DNA from: a virus
Lineage: Duplodnaviria; Heunggongvirae; Uroviricota; Caudoviricetes
Virus record (IMG/VR): IMGVR_UViG_2671180676_000004
Location: 1-64,000 of that record
Direction: 5' to 3' (one strand)
DNA: 64,000 nt
The position numbers were made by a program, and so were the translations under genes. This document shows, piece after piece, positions 8,501-64,000 of the stretch. The notes under the pieces were generated by a model. That model saw nothing but the letters and a program-made list of their open reading frames with translations. It was not told the DNA's origin and did no database searches. Numbering within the stretch: the stretch's first letter is position 1; every line of letters begins with the position of its first letter.

Positions 8501-8662
8501 TACGGAAATAAATTCATAACCCTGATTCCGCAGGTCCTGAATCAGTTCACGTTCCAGGTCCGATTCGCTCTGGTAGCTGTCGCTTGTTTGCTCAGCTTTG
8601 ATGTACTTATCAAGGACGATAAAGTTATTGGATTCAGCAATGGTGTGTGTTTGATGAGTCAT
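5546..8662 (-). CDS. hsdR: Type I restriction enzyme R subunit
   Basis: 1038 aa; SF2 motifs TGSGKT and DECH ([10 protein letters not shown]); directly downstream of hsdM-hsdS. Confidence 0.9.
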
Positions 8663-8784
8663 AGCGCATCCTTTGTGCCGCCTGGCAAGAGCCGGAAGGG
8701 CGTTAAGAGTGACTTCCGGCGCGTAAAAAAATAGTCTATATACTGACCGGGTGTTAAGGTGGCCCGATCGGTAGCAATGGTCAA

Positions 8785-10023
8785 TTAATTACTGACAGTT
8801 TCAGGTTTCGGGAAACTGAACAGTAAATCACGGTAGTATTCGTATTGTTTCTGGCGCAACTCGATTTCACGCGGGAGACCTTCGGTGATGGAGTTGGTCA
8901 GGGTGTCGAATTTATCGAGCAGAGCAGATATTCGCTCTTGTTTCTGTTTATCAGGCAATGGCACTGGTAATGTTTTTATAATATCTGCATTCAAGTTACT
9001 GACCGACCCGCTATTGATTTTACTTTCCCAATAATTTTTCACCTTTTTTGATGAAAGATAGTGATACAGATAATCAGCATTTAATTTTTCACCAAAATTG
9101 CTGATTGATGCCCATCCATCATGGATAGCTCCGGTTATCCTTAAAATATATGGTCTGCCAAAGCTCATAGAGTTAGAAATGACGAAATCACCGGGGTTCA
9201 AGATTCGCGATTTTTGGGCACCCTCTGCAGTTATTTTTTGTAAGGTTTTGTCAATGTATTTAGAGCCGGGGATAGTATCTCCGATTTTAATCCATGGGAT
9301 ACCATTTCCTTGTTCAGTAAGATAATTAACAATTGGCCTGGGGGATGCCCCACGTTGTATTTTGGCTACTTCTCCCAATGCCTTCCACTCAACCTCACCC
9401 TCTTTAAAACTCAGCAACTGGTCGCGATAGTAGTTGTACTGTTTTTTACGCATGTTAAGCTCAGCGGTAAGCTCAGCGGTAAGTGCAGTAAACTTATCCA
9501 GAATCCGAACAATTTCAGACTGGATGGCAAGGGATTTTCCCGGGGCGCTGGGACAAGGGATGGGTATTTGATAGTTTAAAATTGCATCTTTACTGCCTCG
9601 AGGCATCTTTGCCCCTTTAGCGTGCTGCATACTGTAAGAAAAAAATGAATCCGACGATAATGCATAGTAGAGATATTCTGGACTAATAATTTTTTTACAG
9701 TCTGCTAAAATGCGTATAGCAAGGACATCACCACTGCACCCGCCATTATTCTCCGCCATCCAAACTTTCTTTAAATATGGGCGAATATTACCTAAAAGAA
9801 TATCACCTGGCTCATAGGCAGTTAAACGTGCCGTATTAGGCTGATAGGTGGCGTCAATGCGACCGCCTTTATCAGCAAGGAGATTATCAACGCCAACGAA
9901 TGAAGTGGCATCAAGTTTATCAGCATCAACTTTGGTTGTTGAATACCCGGCGATATCGCCCACTGCTTTCCACTCAACCTCAACCCCATCCAGCAATTTT
10001 TCCAGATAACTCAACTCGCTCAT
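8785..10023 (-). CDS. hsdS: Type I restriction-modification specificity subunit
   Basis: 412 aa with two target-recognition halves, each ending in a conserved coiled spacer (…[16 protein letters not shown] / …[16 protein letters not shown]); overlaps hsdM by 4 nt. Confidence 0.85.
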
Positions 10024-11582
10024 TTCTGCACCTCGCAGCCTTCAATTTCAGCCACAATCGCATCAATATCTTTACGCAACTGGTCGATTTTGCTGACCGT
10101 GGTTTTCAGCTCTGCATTCAACTCAGCGATATCGATAATTTCGCGAGTATCTTTCACTTCAACATAGCTGCTCACCGACAGGTTATAGTCATTAGCAACA
10201 ACAGTCTCAAACGCAACAGATTTCGCCAGATGAGCAACATCTTCCTTGCTGGCAAATACCTGCATAATTTTTTCTATATGGGCATCGGTCAGAATGTTGT
10301 TGTTAGTCTCTTTTTTGAACAGTTCGCTGGCATCAATAAACTGAACTTTGGTATCCGTTTTATGTTTAGACAGCACCAGAATATTGACGGCAATGGTGGT
10401 GCCAAAGAACAGGTTCGGTGCCAGTGAAATCACGGTTTCGACATAGTTATTGTCAACCAGATACTGACGGATTTTCTGCTCCGCGCCGCCACGGTAAAAA
10501 ATGCCCGGGAAGCAGACAATCGCAGCACGACCTTTGGCAGAAAGATAGTTCAGCGCATGTAATACAAACGCAAAGTCAGCTTTGGATTTGGGGGCCAGAA
10601 CGCCAGCCGGGGCAAAACGTTCATCGTTAATCAGCGTCGGGTCATCGCTGCCAATCCATTTCACCGAATACGGCGGGTTAGAAACGATGGCATCAAACGG
10701 TTTTTCATCTCTGAAGTGCGGCTCAGTCAGCGTATTGCCCAGCTTGATATCAAACTTGTCGTAGTTGATGTTGTGCAAAAACATGTTCATACGCGCCAGG
10801 TTATAGGTCGTATGGTTGATCTCCTGACCGAAAAAGCCTTCTTCGATGATGTGGTCATCGAACTGCTTTTTCGCCTGCAACAACAGCGAACCGGAACCTG
10901 CTGCCGGGTCGTAGATTTTGTTAACGTGGGTCTGGCCGTGCATTGCCAATTGTGCAATCAGCTTAGAGACGTGCTGCGGTGTAAAGAACTCGCCGCCTGA
11001 CTTACCAGCATTCGCGGCATAGTTAGAAATCAGGAACTCATAGGCATCGCCGAACAGGTCAATCTGATGTTCGTTGAAGTCACCAAGTTTTAACCCTTCA
11101 ACCCCTTTCAGAACCGCAGCCAGGCGGGCATTTTTATCTTTAACGGTGTTACCCAGGCGGTTACTGGTGGTATCGAAATCAGCAAACAAACCTTTGATGT
11201 CAGCTTCTGAAGGATAACCGTAAGCAGAACTTTCGATAGCAACGAAGATGCTGTTTAAATCTGCGTTCAGTCTGTCATTGGTATTTGCTTTCGCCGCTAC
11301 GTTGCAGAAAAGCTGACTGGGGTAGATGAAGTAGCCTTTAGTTTTGATGGCATCGTCTTTAATGTCATCAGTAATTACGCTGTCATCCAGTTTCGCATAA
11401 CAGATACTGTCATCACCGGCTTCAATATAGCTGGAAAAATTTTCGCTGATAAAACGGTAGAAAAGTGCGCCCAGAACGTATTGCTTAAAATCCCATCCAT
11501 CGACCGAACCCCTGACATCGTTAGCAATTTGCCAGATTTGACGATGAAGCTCTGCACGTTGTTGAATACTTGTCATTTTCAT
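10020..11582 (-). CDS. hsdM: Type I N6-adenine DNA methyltransferase subunit
   Basis: 520 aa; SAM motif [10 protein letters not shown] and catalytic NPPYS. Confidence 0.9.
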
Positions 11583-13070: not shown

Positions 13071-13460
13071 ATGGGCTTCCCTTCTCCTGCGGCGGATTAT
13101 GCTGAGAGTCGTATTTCTCTTGATCAGCAGATAATTAGACATCCTTCAGCGACCTACTTCTTGAGGGCAGCTGATAGTCATCATCGTGAGGGAATATTAC
13201 AGGGTGCATTGCTGGTGGTCGATTCCTCACTTACCCCGGTTGATGGTTCTCTGCTTGTATGCGCTCTGGATGGGGAATATCGCGTAAAAAGATACCGGAA
13301 GTATCCACGTCAGCATCTGGAGGATTTGAGAACCGGTAAGAAGGAAGCATTGCCAAAGGATGACGATGGATGCACGGGCAGCAATGCCGTGTTTGGTGTG
13401 ATCACTCACATTATCAACGACGCAAGAAGTGGCGAGTTTGATGATTGTCCCGTGATGTAG
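13071..13460 (+). CDS. UmuD'-like S24-peptidase domain protein
   Basis: Begins MGFPSPAADY…HPSATYF, matching UmuD from its Cys-Gly autocleavage site onward; Ser and Lys positions kept (ADSH…VKRY); no umuC partner. Confidence 0.6.
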   Translation: MGFPSPAADYAESRISLDQQIIRHPSATYFLRAADSHHREGILQGALLVVDSSLTPVDGSLLVCALDGEYRVKRYRKYPRQHLEDLRTGKKEALPKDDDGCTGSNAVFGVITHIINDARSGEFDDCPVM

Positions 13461-13496: not shown

Positions 13497-14597
13497 TCAC
13501 ACTGCGCGGAATGCGATCTCGCCAGGTATTACTTCGCCTTGCCAATACATTTGGGCAGCAACGCGATCTGCGAGGTCACGATAAATAGCCGTAAATTCGC
13601 TATCTGGACGACTAATAACGGTTGGTGTTCCGTTATCCAGATCTTCACGAAGAGAGATATGAAGTGGCATTTGGCCTAACAACTGCGTGTTGTATTTCTC
13701 GGCCAGTTTCTGTGCGCCACCGGTGCCAAAAATTGGCTCGTGATGACCGCAGTTACTGCAAATATGCACACTCATGTTTTCGACGATACCCAGTACCGGC
13801 ACTTCGACTTTTTCGAACATCACAATGCCTTTCTTCGCATCGATCAGCGCGATGTCTTGCGGCGTAGTTACCACAACCGCACCAGTTACAGGAATGTTCT
13901 GCGCCAGCGTCAACTGAATATCACCAGTGCCCGGCGGCATATCGAGAACGAGATAGTCCAGATCAGGCCATAGAGTTTCCTGCAACATCTGCATCAGCGC
14001 CTTGCTGGCCATCGGTCCACGCCACACCATTGCATTGTCGTCGGTGACCAGATAACCAATAGAGTTGGTTGCCAGGCCATGAGACATGATAGGTGCCATG
14101 TGAGTACCGTCCGGTGAGGTTGGACGTTGGTTTTCCGCGCCCAGCATGGTTGGAATTGATGGACCATAGATATCGGCATCCAAAATACCAACTTTCGCAC
14201 CTTCAGCAGCCAACGCCAGTGCCAGGTTTACCGCCGTGGAGGATTTACCCACGCCGCCCTTGCCTGAGCTGACGGCGATAATGTTCTTAACGCCATTAAT
14301 GCCTGGTTGGTTTTTGACGCGCTTAAGCGTGGCAATGTTGTACGACAGCTTCCAGTCAATAGCCTTTGCGCCAGTGATACGGAGCAGATCACCACTACAT
14401 TGCTCTTTCAGGTCTTCAAAAGGCTTATTCCACACGAAAGGCATGATTAGTTCGACATGCAGTGTGTCATCCATCAACGCAACATGGTGTAACGCTTTAA
14501 GCGTAGTCAGGTTGTGTTTCAGGGTTGGGTGCTGAAAATTAGCCAGCGTACCGGCTACCATTGCTCTCAGGGCATCCGGCGATTTGGACTCGCTCAT
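13497..14597 (-). CDS. apbC: Fe-S cluster carrier ATPase Mrp/ApbC
   Basis: 366 aa; P-loop SSGKGGVGKSST; MinD/Mrp family; divergent from metG as in E. coli. Confidence 0.95.
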   Translation of the reverse strand: MSESKSPDALRAMVAGTLANFQHPTLKHNLTTLKALHHVALMDDTLHVELIMPFVWNKPFEDLKEQCSGDLLRITGAKAIDWKLSYNIATLKRVKNQPGINGVKNIIAVSSGKGGVGKSSTAVNLALALAAEGAKVGILDADIYGPSIPTMLGAENQRPTSPDGTHMAPIMSHGLATNSIGYLVTDDNAMVWRGPMASKALMQMLQETLWPDLDYLVLDMPPGTGDIQLTLAQNIPVTGAVVVTTPQDIALIDAKKGIVMFEKVEVPVLGIVENMSVHICSNCGHHEPIFGTGGAQKLAEKYNTQLLGQMPLHISLREDLDNGTPTVISRPDSEFTAIYRDLADRVAAQMYWQGEVIPGEIAFRAV

Positions 14598-14754
14598 CCC
14601 GTCTCCTTTATTTTAATTTGCGCAATTGTCGCCTTGTAGTGTACTCCAGCTACGACATTTAATCATTTATGAGAAATGCTGTTATCACATGGCAGACATA
14701 AGGCCATTTTGTTACTATCAAGCCCCTTTTCACTACAAAGAAGTAATGCCTACT

Positions 14755-16788
14755 ATGACCCAAGTCGCGAAGAAAATTCTGGTGACGTGCGCGCTGCCGT
14801 ACGCTAACGGCTCAATCCACCTCGGCCATATGCTGGAGCACATCCAGGCTGATGTCTGGGTTCGTTACCAGCGAATGCGCGGCCACGAGGTTAATTTCAT
14901 CTGTGCCGACGATGCCCACGGTACGCCGATCATGCTGAAAGCACAGCAGCTTGGTATCACACCGGAGCAGATGATTGGCGAAATGAGTCAGGAACACCAG
15001 ACTGATTTCGCAGGCTTTAACATCAGCTATGACAACTATCACTCGACGCACAGCGAAGAGAACCGTCAGTTGTCTGAGCTTATCTATACTCGCCTGAAAG
15101 AGAACGGTTTTATTAAAAACCGCACTATCTCTCAGTTGTACGACCCGGAAAAAGGCATGTTCCTGCCGGATCGTTTTGTAAAAGGCACCTGCCCGAAATG
15201 TAAAGCGCCAGATCAATACGGCGATAACTGTGAAGTCTGCGGCGCAACATATAGCCCGACTGAATTGATCGAGCCGAAATCGGTGGTTTCTGGCGCTACC
15301 CCGGTAATGCGTGATTCCGAACACTTCTTCTTTGATCTACCTTCTTTCAGCGAAATGTTGCAGGCATGGACCCGCAGCGGCGCGTTGCAGGAGCAGGTGG
15401 CGAACAAAATGCAGGAATGGTTTGAATCCGGCCTGCAACAGTGGGATATATCCCGCGATGCGCCTTACTTCGGTTTTGAAATTCCGAACGCGCCGGGCAA
15501 ATATTTCTACGTCTGGCTGGACGCGCCGATTGGCTACATGGGTTCCTTCAAGAATCTGTGCGACAAGCGCGGCGATACCACCAGCTTCGATGAATACTGG
15601 AAGAAAGACTCCACCGCCGAGCTGTACCACTTCATCGGTAAAGATATTGTTTACTTCCACAGCCTGTTCTGGCCTGCCATGCTGGAAGGCAGCAACTTCC
15701 GCAAGCCGACCAACCTGTTTGTTCATGGCTATGTGACGGTGAACGGCGCGAAGATGTCCAAGTCTCGCGGCACCTTTATTAAAGCCAGCACCTGGCTGAA
15801 TCATTTTGACGCTGACAGCCTGCGTTACTACTACACTGCGAAACTCTCTTCGCGTATTGATGATATCGATCTCAACCTGGAGGATTTCGTTCAGCGTGTG
15901 AATGCCGATATCGTTAACAAAGTGGTTAACCTGGCGTCCCGTAACGCTGGCTTTATCAATAAGCGTTTTGACGGTGTGCTGGCAGGCGAACTGGCTGACC
16001 CGCAACTGTATAAAACCTTCACTGATGCTGCTGAAGTGATTGGTGAAGCATGGGAAAGCCGCGAATTTGGTAAAGCTATCCGTGAAATCATGGCATTGGC
16101 TGACCTGGCTAACCGCTATGTCGATGAACAGGCTCCGTGGGTGGTGGCGAAGCAGGAAGGACGCGATGCCGATCTGCAGGCGATTTGCTCTATGGGCATT
16201 AACCTGTTCCGCGTGCTGATGACGTACCTGAAGCCGGTACTGCCGAAACTGACTGAACGTGCAGAAGCATTCCTGAATACAGAACTGACCTGGGATGGTA
16301 TCCAGCAACCGCTGCTGGGCCATAAAGTGAATCCGTTCAAGGCACTGTATAACCGCATCGATATGAAGCAGGTTGAAGCACTGGTGGAAGCATCCAAAGA
16401 AGAAGTGAAAGCCACAGCCGCACCGGTAACTGGCCCACTGGCTGACGACCCGATTCAGGAAACTATCACCTTTGACGACTTCGCCAAAGTTGACCTGCGC
16501 GTGGCGCTGATTGAAAACGCAGAGTTTGTAGAAGGTTCTGACAAACTGCTTCGCCTGACGCTGGATCTCGGTGGTGAAAAGCGTAATGTCTTCTCAGGCA
16601 TCCGTTCCGCTTATCCAGATCCACAGGCACTGATTGGTCGTCACACCATTATGGTGGCTAACCTGGCACCACGTAAAATGCGCTTCGGTATCTCTGAAGG
16701 CATGGTGATGGCTGCTGGCCCCGGCGGGAAAGATATCTTCCTGTTAAGCCCGGATGCTGGTGCTAAACCTGGCCACCAGGTTAAGTAA
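14755..16788 (+). CDS. metG: Methionyl-tRNA synthetase
   Basis: 677 aa from [11 protein letters not shown]; class I HIGH (HLGH) and KMSKS motifs; zinc knuckle CPKC…CEVCG; C-terminal tRNA-binding domain. Confidence 0.97.
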
Positions 16789-24761: not shown

Positions 24762-25286
24762 TCAAAAAGGCAAAATTCGTTCAACCCAATCGAACAAAAC
24801 AACTATTTTTCTACCGTTCTCGACACGTAGTGTAACCTGACAAGCATCTGCGCCTGCTGACACCCCCTCAATTTCACGGCCATCCGCCATGTACACCCTT
24901 ATAGATTTGTTTGCTTTGTAGGCTTGGTTGCAAATTGCAAAAAAATCGCGGCGTGATGGCCGATTATCGACATAATCAGGGTGAACTGTTAGTCGACCTT
25001 TGAAATCGTGAGCGATACTGTCAACCACACCTGATTCAATTGTACTAATGCGTTCAAGTGGGAGCCTTATACGATTTTCTTTGTCAAAAGGGGCTGGGCA
25101 AAGGTCAACTTTGTTACGAGATGGCATGAGGCCATAAACGTACATGCAAAACGCCTGGCCATCTTCGAGAGTGACCCTTACAGGAATTTGTTCTCTGCGC
25201 CAGAACATCAGTAGTTTTTCAACGTTAGTGTAATCTCGCGGCCAGAGTTCAGCTTGGATACCGTAGGTAATATCTTTGGTTGTCAT
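24762..25286 (-). CDS. Hypothetical protein (174 aa)
   Basis: Start set at MTTKD to avoid overlap with the upstream lipoprotein gene. Confidence 0.45.
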   Translation of the reverse strand: MTTKDITYGIQAELWPRDYTNVEKLLMFWRREQIPVRVTLEDGQAFCMYVYGLMPSRNKVDLCPAPFDKENRIRLPLERISTIESGVVDSIAHDFKGRLTVHPDYVDNRPSRRDFFAICNQAYKANKSIRVYMADGREIEGVSAGADACQVTLRVENGRKIVVLFDWVERILPF

Positions 25287-25290
25287 GTCA

Positions 25291-25713
25291 TCACAGAGTT
25301 GTTGGCAGAATGTCGATGTCACCAGAATTGCTGGTGAACACCCTGAACGCTTTTGTGTCTCCATTCTTCAGAGTCGTTTCTCGCTCTTGACGAGCGGGGT
25401 TTAGAGCACATAAACCTGCACCTTCAAGAGATGCACCCACAATTAATTCTCCGGCATTTAAATGGAAAGTCGCTTTTTCGCCTGTAGCCAGTTTTGCGAC
25501 AGTTTCGCCGTTGATGAAAATGGAAGCATCACATCCAGCTCCTACAAAACCTGTGTCTCTCATTACCACCAACGTAGCTGGCGCTGCGCTTTGATACTTG
25601 AACACTTTGGCCTGCGGTGCTGGTTTGGCGTCATGGATTGATATTGGGCGTGATTGGCACGCGGTAAGCATCAACACTGGTAACGTTAGTAGAGGGAGAA
25701 GCGAGTATTTCAT
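25291..25713 (-). CDS. Putative lipoprotein (140 aa)
   Basis: Signal peptide with lipobox MKYSLLPLLTLPVLMLTAC. Confidence 0.5.
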   Translation of the reverse strand: MKYSLLPLLTLPVLMLTACQSRPISIHDAKPAPQAKVFKYQSAAPATLVVMRDTGFVGAGCDASIFINGETVAKLATGEKATFHLNAGELIVGASLEGAGLCALNPARQERETTLKNGDTKAFRVFTSNSGDIDILPTTL

Positions 25714-56400: not shown

Positions 56401-57734
56401 CAACAACATCGGGCCATGGTGGTGTTAATAATGCGGAGTTTATTTATGTGTACAATGGCAGTGATTACTCGCCAGGCTGGCGTCGTTCTTATAATACTAG
56501 AAACAAACCAACAGCTTCTGATGTAGGAGCATTATCGCTTTCTGGAGGAGCGTTAACTGGCGGATTAACTGCTGCTGGCGAGATTATTTCAAAATCGGCG
56601 AATGGTCTGCGCATTGCCTACGGAAACTACGGATTCTTTATCCGAAACGATGGTTCAAGCACATACTTCATGTTGACCGATTCGGGTAACAGCCTGGGAA
56701 CCTATAATAGTTTAAGGCCGCTTATCATTAACAATGCCAATGGTGCTGTTAGGATCGGTAATGGACTCAATGTTACTGGCGGCATCAATGGTAGTTTGGA
56801 CGGTAATGCTTCAACAGCTACGAAGTTGCAAACAGCGAGAAACATCAATGGTGTTAAGTTTGATGGTTCAGGCGATATCAATATTAATACATTGGTATCT
56901 CGTGGCCGAGTTACGGCGTTAAGCGGCTCTACTCAAGGCACTGCTGGCATTCAAATGTATGAGGCGTACAACAATAGCTACCCGACCATGTATGGCAACG
57001 TATTGCACATGAAAGGTGCGAGTGCTGCTGGTGAGGGAGAGTTGCTTATTGGCTGGAGTGGTACGAGCGGTGCACATGCGCCAGTTTTCATTCGCTCACG
57101 AAGAGATAACACAGGTGCGGCATGGTCAGCGTGGGCGCAGGTATATACCGCTAAGGATTCAATCCCTGGTGTGAATACAACTGGTAATCAGAACACTACT
57201 GGTAATGCCGCAACCGCCACAAAATTGCAGACAGCAAGGAAAATTGCTGGTGTGGCATTTGATGGCTCTGCCGATATAACTTTGACTGCGGCTAACCTTA
57301 ATGCTTACACGAAAACAGAGGTAACAAACCTTCTAAGTTCCTATGTGAAGAGCAGTGCTCTTCCAAGCATGACTGTGCGAACTTCCTCTGTTTCAGGTGG
57401 GGATATGGGCATGAGCTTGTCCGCATTCATTAGCCACCTAAAATCAAATGGGGCGTTTAGCAAAAGTTATTGGATTGGCTTTGGCGATGCTATGGGATTC
57501 AATGCTGGCAGTATCAACAATATAACGGGATTTGGTGCTGTAGAATTAGCAGAATCTATAATCGAAGTTTTTAATCTACCTAACGGTGATTATACAATTC
57601 GTTTAACAACGTCACATAAAGCTGACTACGGTGGAGTTACAAACGCAATCCTCGTTTATCACTACCGTAGTAATAGAAGTCCGTCAGGTCAATGGCTGAA
57701 ATTTGCAGGTACTGTTGGGGCAACAAGTAACTGA
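53445..57734 (+). CDS. Side tail fibre protein
   Basis: 1429 aa; long Ala/Ser-rich segment; fibre motif ATPKAVKTAYD; three ATKLQTAR(K/N)I.GV.FDGS.DI repeats. Confidence 0.8.
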   Translation: MWYREGTITFTQGSNTLVGAGTAWNVTANGVLPGMIVIGPDNKLYEIKRVISDTNIVLSEPYTGETQSEVPCRIITTYEGDLTQFSARFTALMSRMSADSKSMRSWLTALDEVTIEREDGTEVTVKPLMQIVNEHNENVEWYKNNTDAIDAAGDKAREAAASAAAAAESANTAGEKASQASQSASAAASSQSAASASATAAKKSETNAAASQQSAATSASTATTKASEAATSARDAAASKEAAKSSETSAASSASNAASSATAAGNSAKAAKTSETNARSSETAAGQSASAAAGSKTAAASSASAASTSAGQASASATAAGKSAESAASSASTATTKAGEATEQASAAARSASAAKTSETNAKASETRAESSKTAAASSASSAASSASSASASKDEATRQASAAKGSATTASTKATEAAGSATAASQSKTAAESAATRAEAAADRAEEIAGAVAMEDASLTTKGVVKLSSAVDSTSESLAATPKAVKTAYDNAEKRLQKDQNGADIPDKGRFLNNINVYSKGEVDQKKGMRYVVVNAPAGVQEGKYYPLVIKRNDSHRASRVVISTPSRTANHRMNNCEFNGFVCAGGWTDRGSYACGMFWAYSSSERAIHSILMSNKGDTVDSVFYIEGGAFPVEVFLEEGLSVTAPASDYVVAETTYKFGATDPYSESVAVNLILDFKQGNGFYSSYPVLSKSDISGNKVYANDEVIVRSQNALRMIAGDYGVIWRNDGANTYLLMTDKGDQYGGWNGLRPFAVNNATGEVTINTPLNSPKGVKGNSDTATKLQTARKISGVPFDGSTDITLTAAHVAAFARRATGSYADADGGVPWNAESGAYNVTRTGDSYILANFYTGVGSCRTLQIKAHYKNGGLFYRSSRDGSGFESGWEQVYTTGFRPQPADINAPTAAAGWLNSGNGTAFTTAQFITWLNNQGAFSNKYWIARCSWTYANNNYIDDTGCGRIDLSGSVIEVFSNKSTSHYTIRVTTTTTSGHGGVNNAEFIYVYNGSDYSPGWRRSYNTRNKPTASDVGALSLSGGALTGGLTAAGEIISKSANGLRIAYGNYGFFIRNDGSSTYFMLTDSGNSLGTYNSLRPLIINNANGAVRIGNGLNVTGGINGSLDGNASTATKLQTARNINGVKFDGSGDININTLVSRGRVTALSGSTQGTAGIQMYEAYNNSYPTMYGNVLHMKGASAAGEGELLIGWSGTSGAHAPVFIRSRRDNTGAAWSAWAQVYTAKDSIPGVNTTGNQNTTGNAATATKLQTARKIAGVAFDGSADITLTAANLNAYTKTEVTNLLSSYVKSSALPSMTVRTSSVSGGDMGMSLSAFISHLKSNGAFSKSYWIGFGDAMGFNAGSINNITGFGAVELAESIIEVFNLPNGDYTIRLTTSHKADYGGVTNAILVYHYRSNRSPSGQWLKFAGTVGATSN

Positions 57735-57854
57735 TTTAGACATTATTTATATGGCTGTGAGGTTTAAAATGCGATCTCACAGCCGCAATCATAGGGATAT
57801 ATTAGTGAGTTACTAGATACGAATTTGAACAGCCGTTAAACGGTATATACATAG

Positions 57855-57874
57855 ATAGGTAAGTATATACCTAT
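57855..57874. repeat. Motif B palindrome (ataggtaagtatatacctat)
   Basis: 7-bp arms ATAGGTA/TACCTAT; tail fibre/lysis junction. Confidence 0.5.
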
Positions 57875-57936
57875 AATTGAAAGGAGAAGTGTGATATAAA
57901 TCCGCCATCCCGATTTGACTTTTCATGGAGGAAAAC

Positions 57937-58260
57937 ATGTCGAACGAGATGGCGGGCGTTACAACAGAGCAAGTTGAGCGTATAGCCGCGATCGTTGCTC
58001 GGGAGGTTGTTGGCAAATTAGGTAAAGAGCTACGTGAAGAAATTGGCCAGGAGGTCAATGATCAGCTGAAAACCTACTTTGGTGATATGACCCCGGCGCA
58101 ACATAGTATTCAACACTCCAATCTGGACAAACTCCTTAACCGGTTAGATTCCATCTCAAGTGGGTTCTTTGGCGGCATTGTTTCTAAAATAACGTCGTTC
58201 ATTATTACCGCACTGCTTTTGGGGTTAGCCGCGTATGGCGTAAAAAGTGGACTGCAATAA
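57937..58260 (+). CDS. Putative holin-like protein with one C-terminal TM helix
   Basis: ATG 57937 with SD GGAGG; TM FIITALLLGLAAYGV; first gene of the lysis cassette. Confidence 0.35.
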   Translation: MSNEMAGVTTEQVERIAAIVAREVVGKLGKELREEIGQEVNDQLKTYFGDMTPAQHSIQHSNLDKLLNRLDSISSGFFGGIVSKITSFIITALLLGLAAYGVKSGLQ

Positions 58261-58273
58261 CAGGAGATCAAGG

Positions 58274-58966
58274 ATGAAGACTCCGAGAGGCATTCGTAAT
58301 AATAACCCCGGTAATCTTGATAAAGGATCACCGTGGCAAGGTCTGGTTGCGAATCCAGACGAACCGCGCTTTTGCACGTTTAAAGACCCTGTTTGGGGGA
58401 TTCGTGCGCTGGCGGTGACTCTAATTACCTACCACGATAAACGTCGCGCAAAAGACGGCACAAGTATCGATACCATTCGTGAAGTTATTGAACGCTGGGC
58501 ACCGCCGAATGAAAACAATACTGACGCCTACATTAATGAGGTGTCTAAAGCCGTTGGTGTAACCGCAGACATGATCATCGATCTGCATGATTACGACATC
58601 CTTCGACCTTTGGTTGAGGCAATCATTCGCCACGAGAATGGCCGAGGCCCGCTAAAAACGCTGAACACCTGGTATGCGGCAGAAGTTATTGAGGAAGGTC
58701 TGCGTCGAGCTGGCGTTGTTAAGCCGGTGAAAACCGTGAAGGCTGTTCCTGTAACTAAAGAAACCGCAGGCGCAACTGTTACAGCAGGTATTGGTCTGGC
58801 GCAGCTGGCCGATGTTATGCCGCAGGTTTCCGCTGCTATGGATAAAGCACAAGGTCATATCTCTAGCGGGGATACAGTACGCATCATCTTCGGTATTGCC
58901 ACTATTGTTGTGGCAGGATTCATTGCCTGGTCGCAGGTAAGAAAACATCAGAAAGGGATGGTCTAA
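58274..58966 (+). CDS. Putative lysis protein / candidate endolysin (family unassigned)
   Basis: Sits between holin-like and spanin genes; motif GIRNNNPGNL; C-terminal hydrophobic segment IFGIATIVVAGFIAW. Confidence 0.4.
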   Translation: MKTPRGIRNNNPGNLDKGSPWQGLVANPDEPRFCTFKDPVWGIRALAVTLITYHDKRRAKDGTSIDTIREVIERWAPPNENNTDAYINEVSKAVGVTADMIIDLHDYDILRPLVEAIIRHENGRGPLKTLNTWYAAEVIEEGLRRAGVVKPVKTVKAVPVTKETAGATVTAGIGLAQLADVMPQVSAAMDKAQGHISSGDTVRIIFGIATIVVAGFIAWSQVRKHQKGMV

Positions 58967-58967
58967 T

Positions 58968-59219
58968 ATGCTAGGCAGCCTGATGACAAAGCTAAAAGTT
59001 GCTTTGATTACGCTGGCTGCCGTTCTTTTCGTTCTTGTCGGCGCTTACACGATGGGCGGGAATGCGGCGCGACGAGCAATGGAAGAGAAGGCAAAACAGG
59101 AAGACAGAAAACGACTTCAAAGCACAGTGGAAGTGGTGAATGAGACGAGCAATAAAATACGTCAGAAAGATGCTTCTGCCGTTCATCGTGAGTTGTATGA
59201 TAAGTGGGTGCGTCATTAA
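58968..59219 (+). CDS. i-spanin (Rz-like)
   Basis: N-terminal TM VALITLAAVLFVLVGAY then charged helical periplasmic part. Confidence 0.6.
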   Translation: MLGSLMTKLKVALITLAAVLFVLVGAYTMGGNAARRAMEEKAKQEDRKRLQSTVEVVNETSNKIRQKDASAVHRELYDKWVRH

Positions 59220-59355
59220 ACCACAAACCGCCAGCGTATTGTTCTGCGATGGAGCTGGGCCTATCTATATCAGCAATAATGATGTGATGACCGAAGAAAC
59301 CGAACGCCAAATCCTTTTTCACAATACGATGGGAGAGAGAGTTTGCGGTTGGTGA
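59140..59355 (+). CDS. o-spanin (Rz1-like lipoprotein), overlapping Rz in another frame
   Basis: Lipobox MISGC after a basic n-region; starts inside the Rz gene and extends past its stop. Confidence 0.5.
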   Translation: MRRAIKYVRKMLLPFIVSCMISGCVIKPQTASVLFCDGAGPIYISNNDVMTEETERQILFHNTMGERVCGW

Positions 59356-59386
59356 TGCGAAGTTCCCCTCACTTGAGGGGAGTACA

Positions 59387-59908
59387 TTATTCTTCGAACA
59401 ATTTTTCGATAGATTTTGTAGGATAGAACAAAGAACGCTCGTTGTTACCAACCAGCTGGATAAAGCCTAAACTTTTATAAAACGCCTTGGCTTTGTCATT
59501 TAACGCCTCAACGAAAAGTCCATGAATGCCTACAGCAAGAGATGCATTGTACACAACGCGCATTGCATGTGTTACAAGCATTGAGCCAAATCCTTGACCT
59601 TGAAGGGACTTGTCCAAAGCCAGCCTACCCAAAGTAACACTTGGAACATTCCGATAAGGTACCTTCTTTTGCTGGCTTCTTGAAGGTAAGGACTCCTTTT
59701 CAAAGCAGCTGCCTGACAAAGTGTAATACCCTAACACTTTTGGTCTGTCTTCTTTCGTGAAAAGCACATAAGCGCGAAGAATTTTTCCCTCATGCTGCCT
59801 TTTTAAGTGGTTGGTTAAAAAGGCATTTAGTGATTCTTCACCGCAATCAAAACCATTCAAATCATAATCTTTCTCTCCAGAGAAAATTTCTATCTTTATA
59901 TTATCCAC
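59387..59908 (-). CDS. GNAT-family tRNA-acetylating toxin (AtaT/ItaT/TacT-like)
   Basis: 173 aa; strong resemblance to remembered AtaT (…DYDL..FDCGEE.LN.FLT.HL.RQH…ILRAY.L…VLGYYTL.GSCFE…LPS.S.QKK.PY.N.PSVTLGRLA.D.SLQGQG…GIHGLFVEALN.KA..FYKSLGF). Confidence 0.8.
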   Translation of the reverse strand: MDNIKIEIFSGEKDYDLNGFDCGEESLNAFLTNHLKRQHEGKILRAYVLFTKEDRPKVLGYYTLSGSCFEKESLPSRSQQKKVPYRNVPSVTLGRLALDKSLQGQGFGSMLVTHAMRVVYNASLAVGIHGLFVEALNDKAKAFYKSLGFIQLVGNNERSLFYPTKSIEKLFEE

Positions 59909-59915
59909 GAGTAAA

Positions 59916-60185
59916 CTACTCCATGCTTTTCAGACGATCAGCAGCTCGTTTCAGCTTGTCGTTCGGTGCCGGAGGATTGCTTATAGCGTCCATAACCAGA
60001 TTCCAGGATTCTTCATTCAGAACTAGTCTACGGTGTTGCTCTATAACTTTCACGGCACGTTCAGATGCACTGCTAACCATAAACTGAGTAATGCTCTGGT
60101 TAGACATTGCGGCAGCTTCCTCGATGATGCTTTTATCGTCATCGGTTAATCTCAAATCGATGCGCTGCTTTTTTAGTGCTGACAT
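59916..60185 (-). CDS. DUF1778 (RHH) antitoxin, AtaR-like
   Basis: …KKQRIDLRLTDDDK…NQS..QFM..SAS.RA..VIEQHRR..LNEESW…NPP.P..KLKRAA.RL; ATG 60185 with SD AGGAGG; 7 nt upstream of the toxin. Confidence 0.8.
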   Translation of the reverse strand: MSALKKQRIDLRLTDDDKSIIEEAAAMSNQSITQFMVSSASERAVKVIEQHRRLVLNEESWNLVMDAISNPPAPNDKLKRAADRLKSME

Positions 60186-60453
60186 GTATTCCTCCTGATG
60201 GCCGTGATGTAGGAAGGCCATCAATCTCCTCTGTTCAAACTGAGTTTTCGACTCAAAAATTACTTTAAAAGGCTATAGCCCATTACGTGTGCATTATCAA
60301 ATTGTGTACGGCATATCACCGTACTTGTAATATAGAGGTCATTGTTACTTTTTTCAACAGACAAATACAAGCTATGATTGCCAATTGTTAATCACAACCT
60401 ACCATTTAACCTTTACACCGCAGCCGTAGGCATTTAGGCTATATCACATATAA

Positions 60454-60468
60454 GAAAACAAGTTGTTT
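60454..60468 (+). promoter_or_regulatory. Motif A palindrome
   Basis: gaaaacaagttgttt, about 35 nt before ATG 60504. Confidence 0.45.
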
Positions 60469-60503
60469 CAGACGATAATTATATACGCAAAGGGAACTCT
60501 CCA

Positions 60504-61172
60504 ATGACCAAGATCTTTGTGGTTGGCGGCACAAAGGGCGGGCCTGGCAAATCCACCGTTGCCCAGCAAATTGCCGTTTGCCTGAAAGTCAAAAAGAAGA
60601 AGAAGGTTTATATTACCGATATAGATATTCAGCGCACGACAACGAGCTGGTGTGAAGACCGTCGACAGAACGAAGACCTTGAGCTGATTCCTTTTGCATA
60701 CGTTCAGGATGACATCATTAAGCACCTAAAATCGCTTCAGGGTAGAGCTGAGTTTGTAGTGGTAGATGCTGGTGGCTTCGACTCCGAAATTCAGCGACAA
60801 GCGATGCTGATGGCTGACGTTATCATTATCCCGCTGCGTCCTAAGCGTCGTGATTTGAAATCTTTACGTGACATCGATCCTATTATCGACAATGTTCGCA
60901 ATGTAAACGATAAAGTGAAGGTCCGCGCGGTCATGAACCAGTGCCCGGCTTTGCCATCACAAGTGTCTCGCATTCTGGCGGCTAAAGAGATTGTCGAGAC
61001 GTTTGGCATCGAGTCTGCGCCAGTCAATCTATATAACCGCAACGTCTACGATGATGCGGAAGAGTCTGGTCGTTCTATCTTCGAAATGACCGGTAGCGAG
61101 CGCGACAAAAAGGCGGAAGCCGAGTTTGAAGAATTTGTAGATTATCTGTTGAGTCTGGAGGAAGAAGAATAA
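60504..61172 (+). CDS. ParA/MinD-family partition ATPase
   Basis: Deviant Walker A GGTKGGPGKST. Confidence 0.75.
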   Translation: MTKIFVVGGTKGGPGKSTVAQQIAVCLKVKKKKKVYITDIDIQRTTTSWCEDRRQNEDLELIPFAYVQDDIIKHLKSLQGRAEFVVVDAGGFDSEIQRQAMLMADVIIIPLRPKRRDLKSLRDIDPIIDNVRNVNDKVKVRAVMNQCPALPSQVSRILAAKEIVETFGIESAPVNLYNRNVYDDAEESGRSIFEMTGSERDKKAEAEFEEFVDYLLSLEEEE

Positions 61173-61531
61173 TGTCCATGAAAATGGGTGACCTAGCAAA
61201 GCGCAAAGAGCCTGATGCACCGGCTAAGAACACAACTCCTTTGCGCCAACCAGTCAGACCACAAGGACGCCCGACTCGTGGCAAAGAGAAAATTAAAAGC
61301 CGCACCATGTCACTGGAAGACGAATACTTCGAGCTTCTGGAAATGATGAAGTTTATCCCTCGTTTCGAGAAGTTCACCCGCTCTGATGTGATTCGTGCTG
61401 CTATTTTCCATCTGGCAGAGAAGTCGCCGCAGGAAATCGAGGATATCGTGAAACTTAACGAGGCGATCACTGCTGCCGACGTCACGATGCGTACCGATGA
61501 AATCAAACGCGAGTTGATGAAGAAAGGTTAA
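61172..61531 (+). CDS. Small partner protein of the ParA-like ATPase
   Basis: 119 aa; basic disordered N-terminus then helical domain; ATG overlaps parA stop. Confidence 0.45.
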   Translation: MSMKMGDLAKRKEPDAPAKNTTPLRQPVRPQGRPTRGKEKIKSRTMSLEDEYFELLEMMKFIPRFEKFTRSDVIRAAIFHLAEKSPQEIEDIVKLNEAITAADVTMRTDEIKRELMKKG

Positions 61532-61538
61532 TTTTATT

Positions 61539-61563
61539 GAGGTGCTGCTTGGCACCTCTTTCT
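61539..61563 (+). terminator. Intrinsic terminator
   Basis: gaggtgc-tgcttg-gcacctc + TTTCT. Confidence 0.7.
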
Positions 61564-61575
61564 ATAGGTTCCCTA

Positions 61576-62295
61576 ATGCTCTACAAATATATTGGAAGTG
61601 AAGATTCGCAAAAAGTGTTACGTAACCTCAAACGGTTTGTAGAGGACGGCACTATCTCTGCTAGCGCACCTTCTTCATTCAACGACCCATCAGAGTTCAA
61701 AGTTTCGATAACGATGGGAGGTACAGAAGTGGAGCGCCGGAAACACTTTGAAGACAATGGATGTAAGGATTTTTCCTTTGAAGACTGGGATGCTGTAGCT
61801 CCTGAAGCTGCAAAATCGTTGGCTGTGGATTTGCGGAAAGAATCATTAGGGGCTTTTGGTGTGGTGTGCTTGTCACCAAACGAAGATAACATCTTGATGT
61901 GGTCACATTACTCAGTGTCGCATAAAGGTTTCTGCATAGGCTTTGATGATGATTTTGTTACCTCTATTGAGGGGTATCACAGCTTTGATAATGTGAAATA
62001 TATACCTTCTGTTCCCGTGTTCGATGAAGTTACAGATGAGTTTAAGGTACTTTTTGATAAGCTCTTTTTCTACAAGCACGAATGCTGGAAATATGAGGAA
62101 GAACAAAGGGTTATTACTAAAAAAATAGGCGCTCAGGCATTTGATAAGAAATATATTAGAGAGATCATTCTTGGACATAACGTTTCTCCTGAAGTAGAAG
62201 AATATGCCCGGACACAGCTAGACACGAGCATCGAGGTTTACAAAATGAGTACACCTGATGATGGTTATCTTCTTGTCAAAGAAAAGCTGAAGTAG
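61576..62295 (+). CDS. DUF2971-like protein
   Basis: Starts MLYKY…; motifs SFNDPSEF and MWSHYS as I recall for DUF2971. Confidence 0.5.
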   Translation: MLYKYIGSEDSQKVLRNLKRFVEDGTISASAPSSFNDPSEFKVSITMGGTEVERRKHFEDNGCKDFSFEDWDAVAPEAAKSLAVDLRKESLGAFGVVCLSPNEDNILMWSHYSVSHKGFCIGFDDDFVTSIEGYHSFDNVKYIPSVPVFDEVTDEFKVLFDKLFFYKHECWKYEEEQRVITKKIGAQAFDKKYIREIILGHNVSPEVEEYARTQLDTSIEVYKMSTPDDGYLLVKEKLK

Positions 62296-62361
62296 CTCCA
62301 GACTTTCCTCAAATGATTATGTTGGGCGCTTTTCTTATTGAACTGGTTAGTGAGGCTAATA

Positions 62362-63534
62362 ATGGATTTGTTCTCAACCAAAATAGCAAAAAACAAGCTG
62401 CACGAATCTTTTAAACAGATTTATCAAGATAATACATATGCTCCAGTAAGAGAAGTGATACAGTCGTGGGGGCGTGGGTTACTGGAGCGTAGCGGTGAGC
62501 AGACTAAATTCGTTAAAGAGTTTCAGACAACCTTCAATTCCGCCTTATGGGAATTGTATCTGAACGAAATGTTTATTCGTCTCGATTATTCTGTCGACTA
62601 CACAAAAGACAGTCCCGATTTCTGTGTTACTACACCGTCAGGCTACCAGTTTAACGTCGAAGCTGTGATATCAGATCGGCCACATAATCCACCTGCAGGT
62701 GCTCTTTTTAGCGAATTAAAATTCAAACATCAATCAACGCTAAAATTAATCGGAAAAATCAAAGACAAACATGATCTTTTTACAGGAGTTAATGGCAAAA
62801 AATTCCCGTACTCTACGATGTCTCATGTAGTTAATAAGCCGTTTGTTCTGGCGCTTGCACCCTTTGACTCCGATTTATCATTGTCTCAAAATAACACAAT
62901 CATCAATCGAGTGTTGTTTGGCATTGAGGAACCTACCACCAGAAATTTGGTGACTGGCAGCCAAACTAAAGTTACCTCAATCAAAAAGAATGAAGACGTT
63001 GAAATTCCATTAGGTATATTTACTAACGACTCATATAAAGAAATAAGTGCGGTTATTTTCTCCACCACCGGCACTTTTGGAAAAGCCGTGGTTCAAAGCG
63101 GTATCGGTAGATATGTAAGGTCAACACGATATCGAGCCATTGATGTGAATGATTTCATCGCCAATGAAGGGATGAAAAACGAGGGAAAGCACACACAAAG
63201 GATAGGACCTGATCATTTCATCACTACATATCGGCATTTTTTAAATAACGAAGTCACTGGTGCGGATATTGTAGTTTGTCATTCCACTGCTCATGAAGAG
63301 ACGCACTTTGACGGCCTTCATATTTACTACAATCCTTTTGCGACAGTGCCACTGGACAGAAATATTTTCTTCCCCCCAGAGATAACTCATAATTTTTACG
63401 ATATGGAAAAAGAACAGTCTGTTCAGAATCATCCTGATGGAGCGCTGGTATCTAGACAGGTTTTTGAACCAACTAGAGCACATTTTAGGTATATCATGAA
63501 ACATTGGTTTCCAGGCTTTCTAAAAGATGTTTAA
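62362..63534 (+). CDS. Hypothetical protein (about 390 aa)
   Basis: ATG 62362 with SD GAGG; track start 62338 is TTG; followed by hairpin H3. Confidence 0.5.
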   Translation: MDLFSTKIAKNKLHESFKQIYQDNTYAPVREVIQSWGRGLLERSGEQTKFVKEFQTTFNSALWELYLNEMFIRLDYSVDYTKDSPDFCVTTPSGYQFNVEAVISDRPHNPPAGALFSELKFKHQSTLKLIGKIKDKHDLFTGVNGKKFPYSTMSHVVNKPFVLALAPFDSDLSLSQNNTIINRVLFGIEEPTTRNLVTGSQTKVTSIKKNEDVEIPLGIFTNDSYKEISAVIFSTTGTFGKAVVQSGIGRYVRSTRYRAIDVNDFIANEGMKNEGKHTQRIGPDHFITTYRHFLNNEVTGADIVVCHSTAHEETHFDGLHIYYNPFATVPLDRNIFFPPEITHNFYDMEKEQSVQNHPDGALVSRQVFEPTRAHFRYIMKHWFPGFLKDV

Positions 63535-63556
63535 GCATCCTGCTGGTTGAATTTGG

Positions 63557-63619
63557 AACCTGCTTCTGTATATAAATACTAAGTTACTTATTATTATTTA
63601 TACGGAAGCAGGTCTTTTT
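63557..63619 (+). terminator. Hairpin H copy 3, intrinsic terminator
   Basis: acctgcttctgtatataaata … tatttatacggaagcaggt, same T·G wobble, then TTTTT. Confidence 0.6.
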
Positions 63620-63700
63620 CTATGCCAACTTCCCAGACACATTCCCTTCCGTTTCCACTTCCAAAAACTGCCACCAGTCGCTATCATCCGCTCATTGCAA

Positions 63701-63720
63701 TAAGTAAGTAACTACCTATC
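63701..63720. repeat. Motif B copy (taagtaagtaactacctatc)
   Basis: Near-identical to the copy at 1718-1737; just upstream of the last partial gene. Confidence 0.5.
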
Positions 63721-63731
63721 TGGTGAGCCAC

Positions 63732-64000
63732 ATGAGCCAAATCTTTTTTGATACCATTGACAACGACCAGTACGACTTCATGACAGAGTGGAATACCGCT
63801 GTTATGGACAAGTGGGTCGCTGAAAACATTGGTTTGTCGCGCTGCAAAGACGAGGCTGAACTCTTCGAGACGAAGTGGTTTGATTACCGCGATATGCATC
63901 CTCTCATGGCCACCTGTCTGTTTACGGAGGCGTACAAACGTCAGTACTCAAATATCATGCTGACGCACGGTCGCGAACACTTTGAAACAGCTCCGTTCAC
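63732..64000 (+). CDS. Hypothetical protein, 5' part (runs off the right edge)
   Basis: ATG 63732; frame open to the window end (MSQIFFDTIDNDQYDFMTEW…). Confidence 0.35.
   Translation, partial: MSQIFFDTIDNDQYDFMTEWNTAVMDKWVAENIGLSRCKDEAELFETKWFDYRDMHPLMATCLFTEAYKRQYSNIMLTHGREHFETAPF

Follow-up and report, generated by a model that had tools for sequence, protein, structure and literature searches.

An AtaRT/KacAT-type toxin-antitoxin operon carried as cargo beside parAB in an SSU5-like Escherichia coli phage-plasmid

We analyzed a stretch of 64,000 nucleotides of viral DNA (IMG/VR record IMGVR_UViG_2671180676_000004, positions 1 to 64,000; hereafter the window), in which a toxin-antitoxin pair occupies positions 59387-60185 of the minus strand, exactly from the stop codon of the toxin gene to the ATG of the antitoxin gene. 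The window is an SSU5-like E. coli phage-plasmid: its positions 57000-64000 are 100% identical to the E. coli plasmid pUTAK-6-1, and it shows 97% identity to the phage Cyrano (pLF82). The antitoxin gene (59916-60185) precedes the toxin gene (59387-59908) on the same strand with a gap of 7 nt, and both genes are convergent with the lysis cassette. An earlier reading of the sequence, here called the original prediction, had placed a GNAT toxin and a DUF1778 antitoxin at these coordinates, and two open reading frames do fill the interval exactly. By its sequence, the pair is a real, intact and self-contained type II operon of the AtaRT/KacAT type. The slot that holds it and the features within that slot are the following:

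59338-60396, no strand assigned: variable cargo slot with the whole cassette (terminator, toxin, antitoxin, leader, operator, promoter), delimited by the break in homology to SSU5
59362-59383, no strand assigned: G+C-rich hairpin in the gap between the Rz1 gene and the convergent toxin gene, found in a terminator scan (9-bp stem with 5 G-C pairs) and also as an inverted repeat
59387-59908, minus strand: predicted GNAT toxin of the AtaT/KacT clade, 173 amino acids, its GTG start codon aligned with Met1 of AtaT
59916-60185, minus strand: DUF1778/TacA1 ribbon-helix-helix antitoxin, 89 amino acids, with an ATG start and AGGAGG upstream at normal spacing
60186-60305, minus strand: long 5' leader of about 120-135 nt from operator to antitoxin start, which may be only a spacer
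60306-60324, no strand assigned: predicted operator palindrome GTACGG-N7-CCGTAC (GTACGGTGATATGCCGTAC), four bases downstream of the -10 box of the promoter
60329-60357, minus strand: sigma-70-like promoter (TTGAAA, 17 nt, TATATT), with 10 of 12 matches the best of the region in a promoter scan

The toxin scores above the cut-offs of four Pfam GNAT families. When it was searched with phmmer against all PDB chains, the chains of AtaT from E. coli O157:H7 (6GTS, 6AJM, 6AJN, 6GTQ, and 7CHD) gave E-values of 2e-78 to 5e-77, and those of Klebsiella KacT (5ZGN and 5XUN) about 1e-75, over residues 1-172 and without gaps. The remaining GNAT-toxin chains of the PDB are much weaker matches (E 1e-21 to 1e-11), and 7BYY, whose identity as ItaT we confirmed from the ItaT paper, reaches only 2.5e-4. 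Judged by these matches, the toxin falls in the AtaT/KacT clade (clade A of PMC9177977) and not in the ItaRT clade (clade B). Of the label "AtaRT/ItaRT-like" that had been given to the pair, the first half is thus appropriate, whereas the second is imprecise, because ItaT is distant from this toxin and belongs to another clade.

We took the reference sequences of AtaR and AtaT from the O157:H7 chromosome and compared them with the two proteins position by position. The toxin is identical to AtaT at 119 of 173 positions (68.8%), with no gaps. The residues of AtaT whose mutation removes or lowers toxicity have been catalogued by Yashiro et al. (PMC7595197). The toxin keeps the acetyl-CoA residue G108 and the catalytic Y144, an acetyl-CoA loop that reads SLQGQGFG, the aminoacyl-pocket residues L27 and L136, and the tRNA-contact residues F30, H34, R37, S76, S78, K81, K82, Y85, and R95; it differs from AtaT at A26S, R40E, R71K, K77R, and K79Q. 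In an alignment of the toxin clade made with 117 database homologues, L27, F30, R37, Y85, R95, G108, and Y144 are invariant or nearly so among the 119 clade members, and all of these residues, whose mutation abolishes or strongly lowers the toxicity of AtaT, are present here. S26, K71, and Q79 of the toxin correspond to the clade consensus, so that AtaT is the outlier at these three positions, and position 40 varies freely. A loss of acetyl-CoA-binding residues had been named beforehand as an observation that would speak against a GNAT toxin of the tRNA-acetylating family. We observe instead that G108 and the QGQGxG loop are retained, and these, with the intact catalytic residue and the AtaT/KacT matches, sustain that assignment.

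The antitoxin matches the Pfam family PF08681 (TacA1, formerly DUF1778; E 5.7e-26) and, in the PDB, KacA (E 6.6e-42) and AtaR (E 1.3e-40), with which it shares 70 of 87 and 67 of 88 residues, respectively (76% and gap-free in the case of AtaR). Its C-terminal, toxin-binding half is 71% identical to that of AtaR. In KacA the operator is read by R8, D10, and R12 (PMC6698736), all three of which are retained in the antitoxin within the identical N-terminal motif KKQRIDLRL. The PF08681 match and the 7-nt gap agree with the expectation of a DUF1778 ribbon-helix-helix antitoxin directly upstream of the toxin, in the antitoxin-first order. A longer antitoxin reading frame of 101-102 amino acids (start at 60221/60224), as annotated in Cyrano, was rejected: the upstream ATGs fall out of frame through a 1-nt insertion in an allele of 88% identity, and both AtaR and KacA begin at the shorter start, which makes the 89-residue form the conserved product.

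Upstream of the antitoxin gene, the pattern GTACGG-N7-CCGTAC has a single match in the 64-kb window, compared to 0.06 expected by chance. The same half-sites with the same spacing lie beside the -10 box of the chromosomal ataRT of O157:H7 (GTACGGTGACATACCGTAC), and they are also found in the 88%-identical allele, in a 69%-identical homologue on an IncF plasmid, and at 28 of 29 IMG/VR loci. The palindrome at 60306-60324 is the operator to be expected for an AtaR/KacA-type system, and the antitoxin would probably bind there. The promoter next to it is predicted from a consensus match only; its hexamers are the same in the 88% allele. Within the leader, a hairpin at 60196-60223 lies beside the Shine-Dalgarno sequence. 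We considered a regulatory RNA in this region (60186-60322) and discarded it, the predicted fold being no better than that of shuffled sequences (z = -0.40); the leader gave no credible Rfam match, and the arms of its hairpin show no covariation between alleles. At the other end of the cassette, the hairpin at 59362-59383 is terminator-like on the plus strand and has no T-run on the strand of the toxin-antitoxin genes.

Among characterized systems, AtaR-AtaT of O157:H7 (PDB 6AJM, 6GTS) resembles the pair in the order and spacing of the operon, in Tyr144, Gly108, and the QGQGxG loop, and in the operator half-sites beside the -10 box, in addition to the identities of 68.8% (toxin) and 76% (antitoxin) given above. 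It differs in being chromosomal, between livJ and panM, instead of phage-plasmid cargo, in the distance from operator to start (about 26 nt, versus about 120 nt here), and in the start codon of the toxin (ATG, versus GTG here). KacA-KacT of Klebsiella pneumoniae (5XUN, 5ZGN) is about as close, with bit scores of 253-255 compared to 261-265 for AtaT, and shares with our antitoxin the 70 identical residues and the conserved R8, D10, and R12; it is chromosomal in Klebsiella. By homology with it, a heterohexamer on the palindromic operator and conditional cooperativity would be expected here. ItaR-ItaT (E. coli; 7BYY) and TacA-TacT (Salmonella; 5FVJ, which we take to be TacT, and others) also combine a GNAT toxin with a DUF1778 antitoxin and share the chemistry of aminoacyl-tRNA acetylation, but they are distant, with an E-value of 2.5e-4 for ItaT and 1e-11 to 1e-21 for the other GNAT-toxin chains, 5FVJ included. 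ItaT and TacT belong to other clades, whose tRNA preferences are Ile/Leu and Gly, respectively (PMC9177977). GmvA-GmvT of the Shigella plasmid pINV is likewise a GNAT-ribbon-helix-helix pair on a low-copy extrachromosomal element, and its post-segregational killing (PMC6519299) is the role that we propose here; it differs in that GmvT belongs to the Gly-specific clade D (PMC9177977) and that it resides on a virulence plasmid and not on a phage. The phd-doc system of the phage-plasmid P1, the likely functional analogue, is, according to the passages of PMC6698736 and PMC7969092 that cite it, a type II pair on a plasmid prophage that stabilizes lysogeny and shows conditional cooperativity. Its protein families are unrelated, the toxin being a Fic-fold kinase and the antitoxin Phd, and its target is EF-Tu.

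The cassette lies between two conserved modules. On one side PHROGs identifies an endolysin and the Rz/Rz1 spanins (58968-59219 and 59140-59355), and on the other a ParA-like partition ATPase (60504-61172). Homology to SSU5 ends at 59337 and restarts at 60397, and a four-way alignment gives a sharp boundary on the right, about 107 bp upstream of the ATG of parA. The content of this slot varies between relatives: in place of the pair, two unrelated hypothetical genes are found in SSU5, two different ones in PhiR41_1, and a single gene on the opposite strand in the Klebsiella element pJN2-26; the proteins of these three slots gave no Pfam or PADLOC matches. The G+C content of the toxin-antitoxin genes is 41.6%, compared to about 48% in the flanking genes. 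Because the cassette has its own promoter, operator, and terminator-like hairpin and a G+C content below that of its flanks, we conclude that it is a separate cargo unit within a hot spot of recombination. A cargo position between the spanins and a partition module had already been proposed, and the unrelated genes found there in the three relatives, together with the sharp right-hand junction, are in line with it. A search for transposon-like or att-like direct repeats around the cassette returned nothing longer than matches of 10-15 nt, as chance would give, and exchange of the cassette by recombination in the conserved flanks is more likely.

Within IMG/VR, 27 of the 29 toxin loci are in the slot between Rz and parA, and both genes are full length and intact in all 29. 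Toxin alleles of 92-99% identity are paired with Rz variants (70% or 96-100%) and with ParA variants (91-93% or 100%), and this joining of the same alleles to differing neighbors indicates exchange between phage-plasmid backbones. The other two viral loci carry toxins of 72-74% identity; one adjoins ParA and ParM on a plasmid-like contig, and the other adjoins a lambda-type integrase in an integrative prophage. The homologue on the IncF-type plasmid adjoins RepB and vapBC. Between phage-plasmid alleles, the toxin gene has a dN/dS of 0.06-0.13 and the antitoxin gene one of 0.04; both are under strong purifying selection. A 1.2-kb query matches 598 plasmids in PLSDB, and 143 of these cover at least 80% of it; the other matches are partial, and those that we examined cover only the parA-proximal end. 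The full pair is present in 152 of 5426 complete E. coli genomes (about 2.8%). A second allele, of 88.5% nucleotide identity, was found in the Rz-parA slot of an SSU5-like segment within the 324-kb plasmid of E. coli ET350 (NZ_CP100967.1), which suggests that this plasmid is a cointegrate of a phage-plasmid and a large plasmid.

E. albertii plasmids of 62-64 kb carry the pair at 99.7% identity. One of them, p2014C-4015-1 (NZ_CP034165.1), was compared over about 58 kb, all but 5.8 kb of the record. Within these 58 kb there is no counterpart to the part of the window from 26.5 to 58.6 kb (positions 26475-58625), which encodes the virion proteins, the holin, and part of the endolysin; the plasmid keeps the pair and parAB. 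The E. albertii plasmids are SSU5-like, keep the replication genes and metG, and carry hdeAB, insertion sequence elements, and one additional RelE/ParE pair; they seem to be phage-plasmids turned into plain plasmids.

From the close characterized relatives, we propose the following mechanism. With acetyl-CoA as the donor, a dimer of the toxin would modify charged tRNAs by acetylation at the alpha-amino group and would thereby block translation. The clade A toxins AtaT, KacT, and AcaT acetylate Gly- and hydrophobic aminoacyl-tRNAs in vivo (PMC9177977), and clade membership, together with the conserved tRNA contacts, suggests that this toxin also acts on Gly- and hydrophobic aminoacyl-tRNAs, including that of Met. 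The C-terminal half of the antitoxin would wrap around the toxin, and both acetyl-CoA binding and dimerization would be blocked, while the N-terminal ribbon-helix-helix dimer, within a T-A2-A2-T heterohexamer, would bind GTACGG-N7-CCGTAC at the promoter. Repression of the operon would then be set by the toxin:antitoxin ratio through conditional cooperativity, a mode of control that has been described for kacAT (PMC6698736). The pair would be expressed during lysogeny, and in a daughter cell that has lost the plasmid prophage the labile antitoxin would decay and the toxin would arrest growth. Post-segregational killing of this kind would complement the adjoining parAB partition module.

We estimate at roughly 78% the probability that the pair is a self-contained AtaRT/KacAT-type operon, carried as phage-plasmid cargo, that stabilizes the plasmid prophage by addiction. 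Stabilization by post-segregational killing is, from its context, the most likely role, since the pair lies beside parAB, is retained in the E. albertii deletion derivatives, and has precedents in GmvAT and phd-doc; of these two, GmvAT is itself a GNAT-ribbon-helix-helix module and favors the vertical transmission of pINV in Shigella (PMC6519299). The location fits that of addiction modules, being on an extrachromosomal SSU5-like phage-plasmid, next to parAB, and kept in derivatives that are poor in virion genes. In LF82 lysogens, the 97%-identical genes of Cyrano are transcribed 35-fold and 60-fold over the prophage background and were called morons (PMC9928086), which suggests that the pair is expressed in the plasmid-prophage state.

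Several observations weigh against this interpretation. Since a cell contains about 5.5 copies of Cyrano, which also encodes a partition system (PMC9928086), addiction may add little. The pair is dispensable, as roughly three quarters of the PLSDB plasmids that match the region are without it. Up to 71 E. coli genomes that hold any homologue, on plasmid or chromosome, have two copies, and the antitoxin of a chromosomal ataRT might, as a second copy, blunt the addiction. Moreover, R40E, K77R, K79Q, R71K, and A26S lie at tRNA-contact positions of AtaT, and since some of these contacts differ, the target spectrum of the toxin could deviate in detail from that of AtaT, even if most of the differing residues are clade consensus.

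The pair might also be a purely selfish hitch-hiker, which persists because its loss kills the cell and which spreads between phage-plasmid backbones by recombination, with no net advantage to the element apart from its own retention. A promoter, an operator, and a terminator make the cassette self-contained, its G+C content is below that of its flanks, the same alleles are found on differing Rz and ParA backbones, and only about one quarter of the related plasmids have the pair, all of which would suit such a module. However, the constant position beside parAB and the retention in deletion derivatives fit the selfish and the addiction views alike and, as the mechanism is identical in both, sequence is unable to separate them. 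We regard a purely selfish existence as possible, though on balance unlikely.

A further possibility concerns cross-talk with the chromosomal ataRT, in which AtaR would neutralize the phage-plasmid toxin and act as an anti-addiction factor, or the phage-plasmid antitoxin would co-repress the chromosomal operon, the two loci then forming a single regulatory circuit. Both systems have the same operator half-sites (GTACGG/CCGTAC, 7 nt apart) and the same DNA-reading residues, and the antitoxins are 76% identical, with 71% in the toxin-binding half, so that AtaR could act in this way. Chromosomal ataRT is found at 1626 places among the 5426 E. coli genomes (about 30%), and the chromosome of isolate UTAK-3 carries it. 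Co-residence amounts to at most 71 genomes, compared to about 90 expected under independence, but this count is an upper bound that includes other plasmid homologues and ignores phylogeny, and it shows no strong exclusion. In Klebsiella, the effect of a chromosomal GNAT toxin is reportedly relieved by a plasmid-borne antitoxin, whereas most of the GNAT-ribbon-helix-helix pairs tested (TacAT1-3 and KacAT1, 3, and 4) do not cross-neutralize (PMC9431474). Cross-talk thus seems plausible at the level of the operator and possible at the level of the proteins, while its actual occurrence is doubtful. If it did occur, some hosts with AtaR could shed the phage-plasmid, or the expression of the host toxin could be rewired.

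Translation-targeting toxin-antitoxin systems can defend against phages, and tRNA-targeting immunity is reportedly covered by a review. The pair could serve mainly in abortive infection, where an invading phage that shuts off the transcription of the host or sets off degradation of the antitoxin would free the toxin; the toxin would then halt translation, block the invader, and protect clonal carriers of the phage-plasmid. A PD-T7-5 homologue and a candidate PDC-S31/DUF2971 gene lie in the next variable slot, just past parAB, which indicates that this part of the element collects defense genes, and SSU5-group elements have been reported with PD-T7-5, PrrC, and restriction-modification systems (bioRxiv 10.1101/2025.09.12.675607). 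Nevertheless, neither the toxin nor the antitoxin matches any PADLOC-DB v2 family at E <= 0.01, and an assignment of the pair as a defense system was rejected for this reason. No GNAT-DUF1778 module with a proven effect against phages turned up in our literature search, and GmvAT, the characterized member from a mobile element, serves plasmid maintenance. Within the slot the pair lies toward parA, and derivatives without most of the virion and lysis region still carry it. The original prediction had offered both stabilization and abortive infection; the first is favored by circumstantial evidence (parAB, the E. albertii derivatives, and GmvAT), and for the second we found neither a PADLOC match nor, in our literature search, a precedent. 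We consider a mainly anti-phage role improbable, although the pair may also defend against phages alongside the PD-T7-5 and PDC-S31 genes. The notion that the GNAT protein is an ordinary acetyltransferase without toxicity, either RimI-like or for resistance, and that the small gene upstream of it encodes a mere transcription factor could invoke the generic RefSeq name of the protein ("GNAT family N-acetyltransferase") and the weak, sub-threshold NCBIfam matches, which are to RimI and other acetyltransferases only, but it is effectively excluded by the strength and specificity of the AtaT/KacT matches, at least 50 orders of magnitude above any housekeeping GNAT, by a TacA1/DUF1778 partner with a conserved toxin-binding C-terminal half, and by chromosomal homologues that RefSeq names AtaT and AtaR.

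The type of system is already known, and its family has been characterized structurally and biochemically. RefSeq annotates identical proteins, and in the Cyrano record the toxin is named "KacT Acetyltransferase-type toxin" and the antitoxin is annotated too. The pair is among the expressed morons of Cyrano in a paper of 2023 (PMC9928086), and Pfeifer et al. had noted that the shell genome of the SSU5 group includes toxin-antitoxin systems (PMC7969092). What we describe is a canonical AtaRT/KacAT-type module in a defined cargo slot beside parAB, present in a subset of E. coli SSU5-like phage-plasmids; it is no new kind of system and matters little past correct annotation. It is useful for the study of how SSU5-like elements, which can carry antimicrobial resistance and defense genes, persist, and it would be a naturally occurring model in which to study both post-segregational killing in a plasmid prophage and interactions with the ataRT locus that is common on E. 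coli chromosomes.

The gene that follows parA (61172-61531, plus strand) overlaps the parA stop codon and encodes 119 amino acids. Cyrano's annotation calls it a "RelE/ParE putative toxin", but we found no Pfam or PDB match to the RelE/ParE family; the only matches are a weak one (E 2e-4) to aCcr1, a family of small ribbon-helix-helix regulators, and one to a PHROG of unknown function. Its position suggests that it is the centromere-binding partner of ParA, and the RelE/ParE label looks wrong. Past parAB lies a second variable slot (61533-63546), where SSU5 and Cyrano differ. It holds the PD-T7-5 homologue (62338-63534, plus strand; PADLOC E 4.5e-139) and the DUF2971 protein that matches the candidate PDC-S31 (61537-62295, plus strand; E 4e-38), which RefSeq labels as hypothetical or as DUF2971 only. 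Further defense cargo is provided by a complete type I restriction-modification system on the minus strand (5546-11582), comprising hsdR (5546-8662), hsdS (8785-10023), and hsdM (10020-11582).

The element also encodes a full-length methionyl-tRNA synthetase (MetRS; 14626-16788, plus strand), with catalytic, anticodon-binding, and tRNA-binding domains (PF09334, E 5e-166). Among phage records, matches of 90% identity or more come from the E. coli SSU5-like elements Cyrano, CMS-2020a, and PhiR41_1 and from a short Salmonella record, but neither from SSU5 nor from the relatives in Klebsiella. We considered whether the toxin is linked to the element's own MetRS and rejected this: PhiR41_1 has the MetRS without the pair and SSU5 has neither, so that the two are not co-dependent. 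Phage-encoded tRNAs that might bypass the toxin were sought in the 64-kb window, and none was found. The metG gene is flanked by genes for an S24-family peptidase (LexA/CI-like; 13071-13460, plus strand), possibly the lysogeny repressor, and for an ApbC/Mrp-type iron-sulfur carrier ATPase (13497-14597, minus strand); the ApbC and MetRS genes look like metabolic cargo of host origin. Finally, a 200-residue open reading frame on the minus strand (24762-25364) matches the Pfam family PF03614, "Repressor of phase-1 flagellin" (FljA-like; E 2.5e-84). This exact frame is not annotated by RefSeq in pUTAK-6-1, and the gene might modulate the expression of flagellin in the host.

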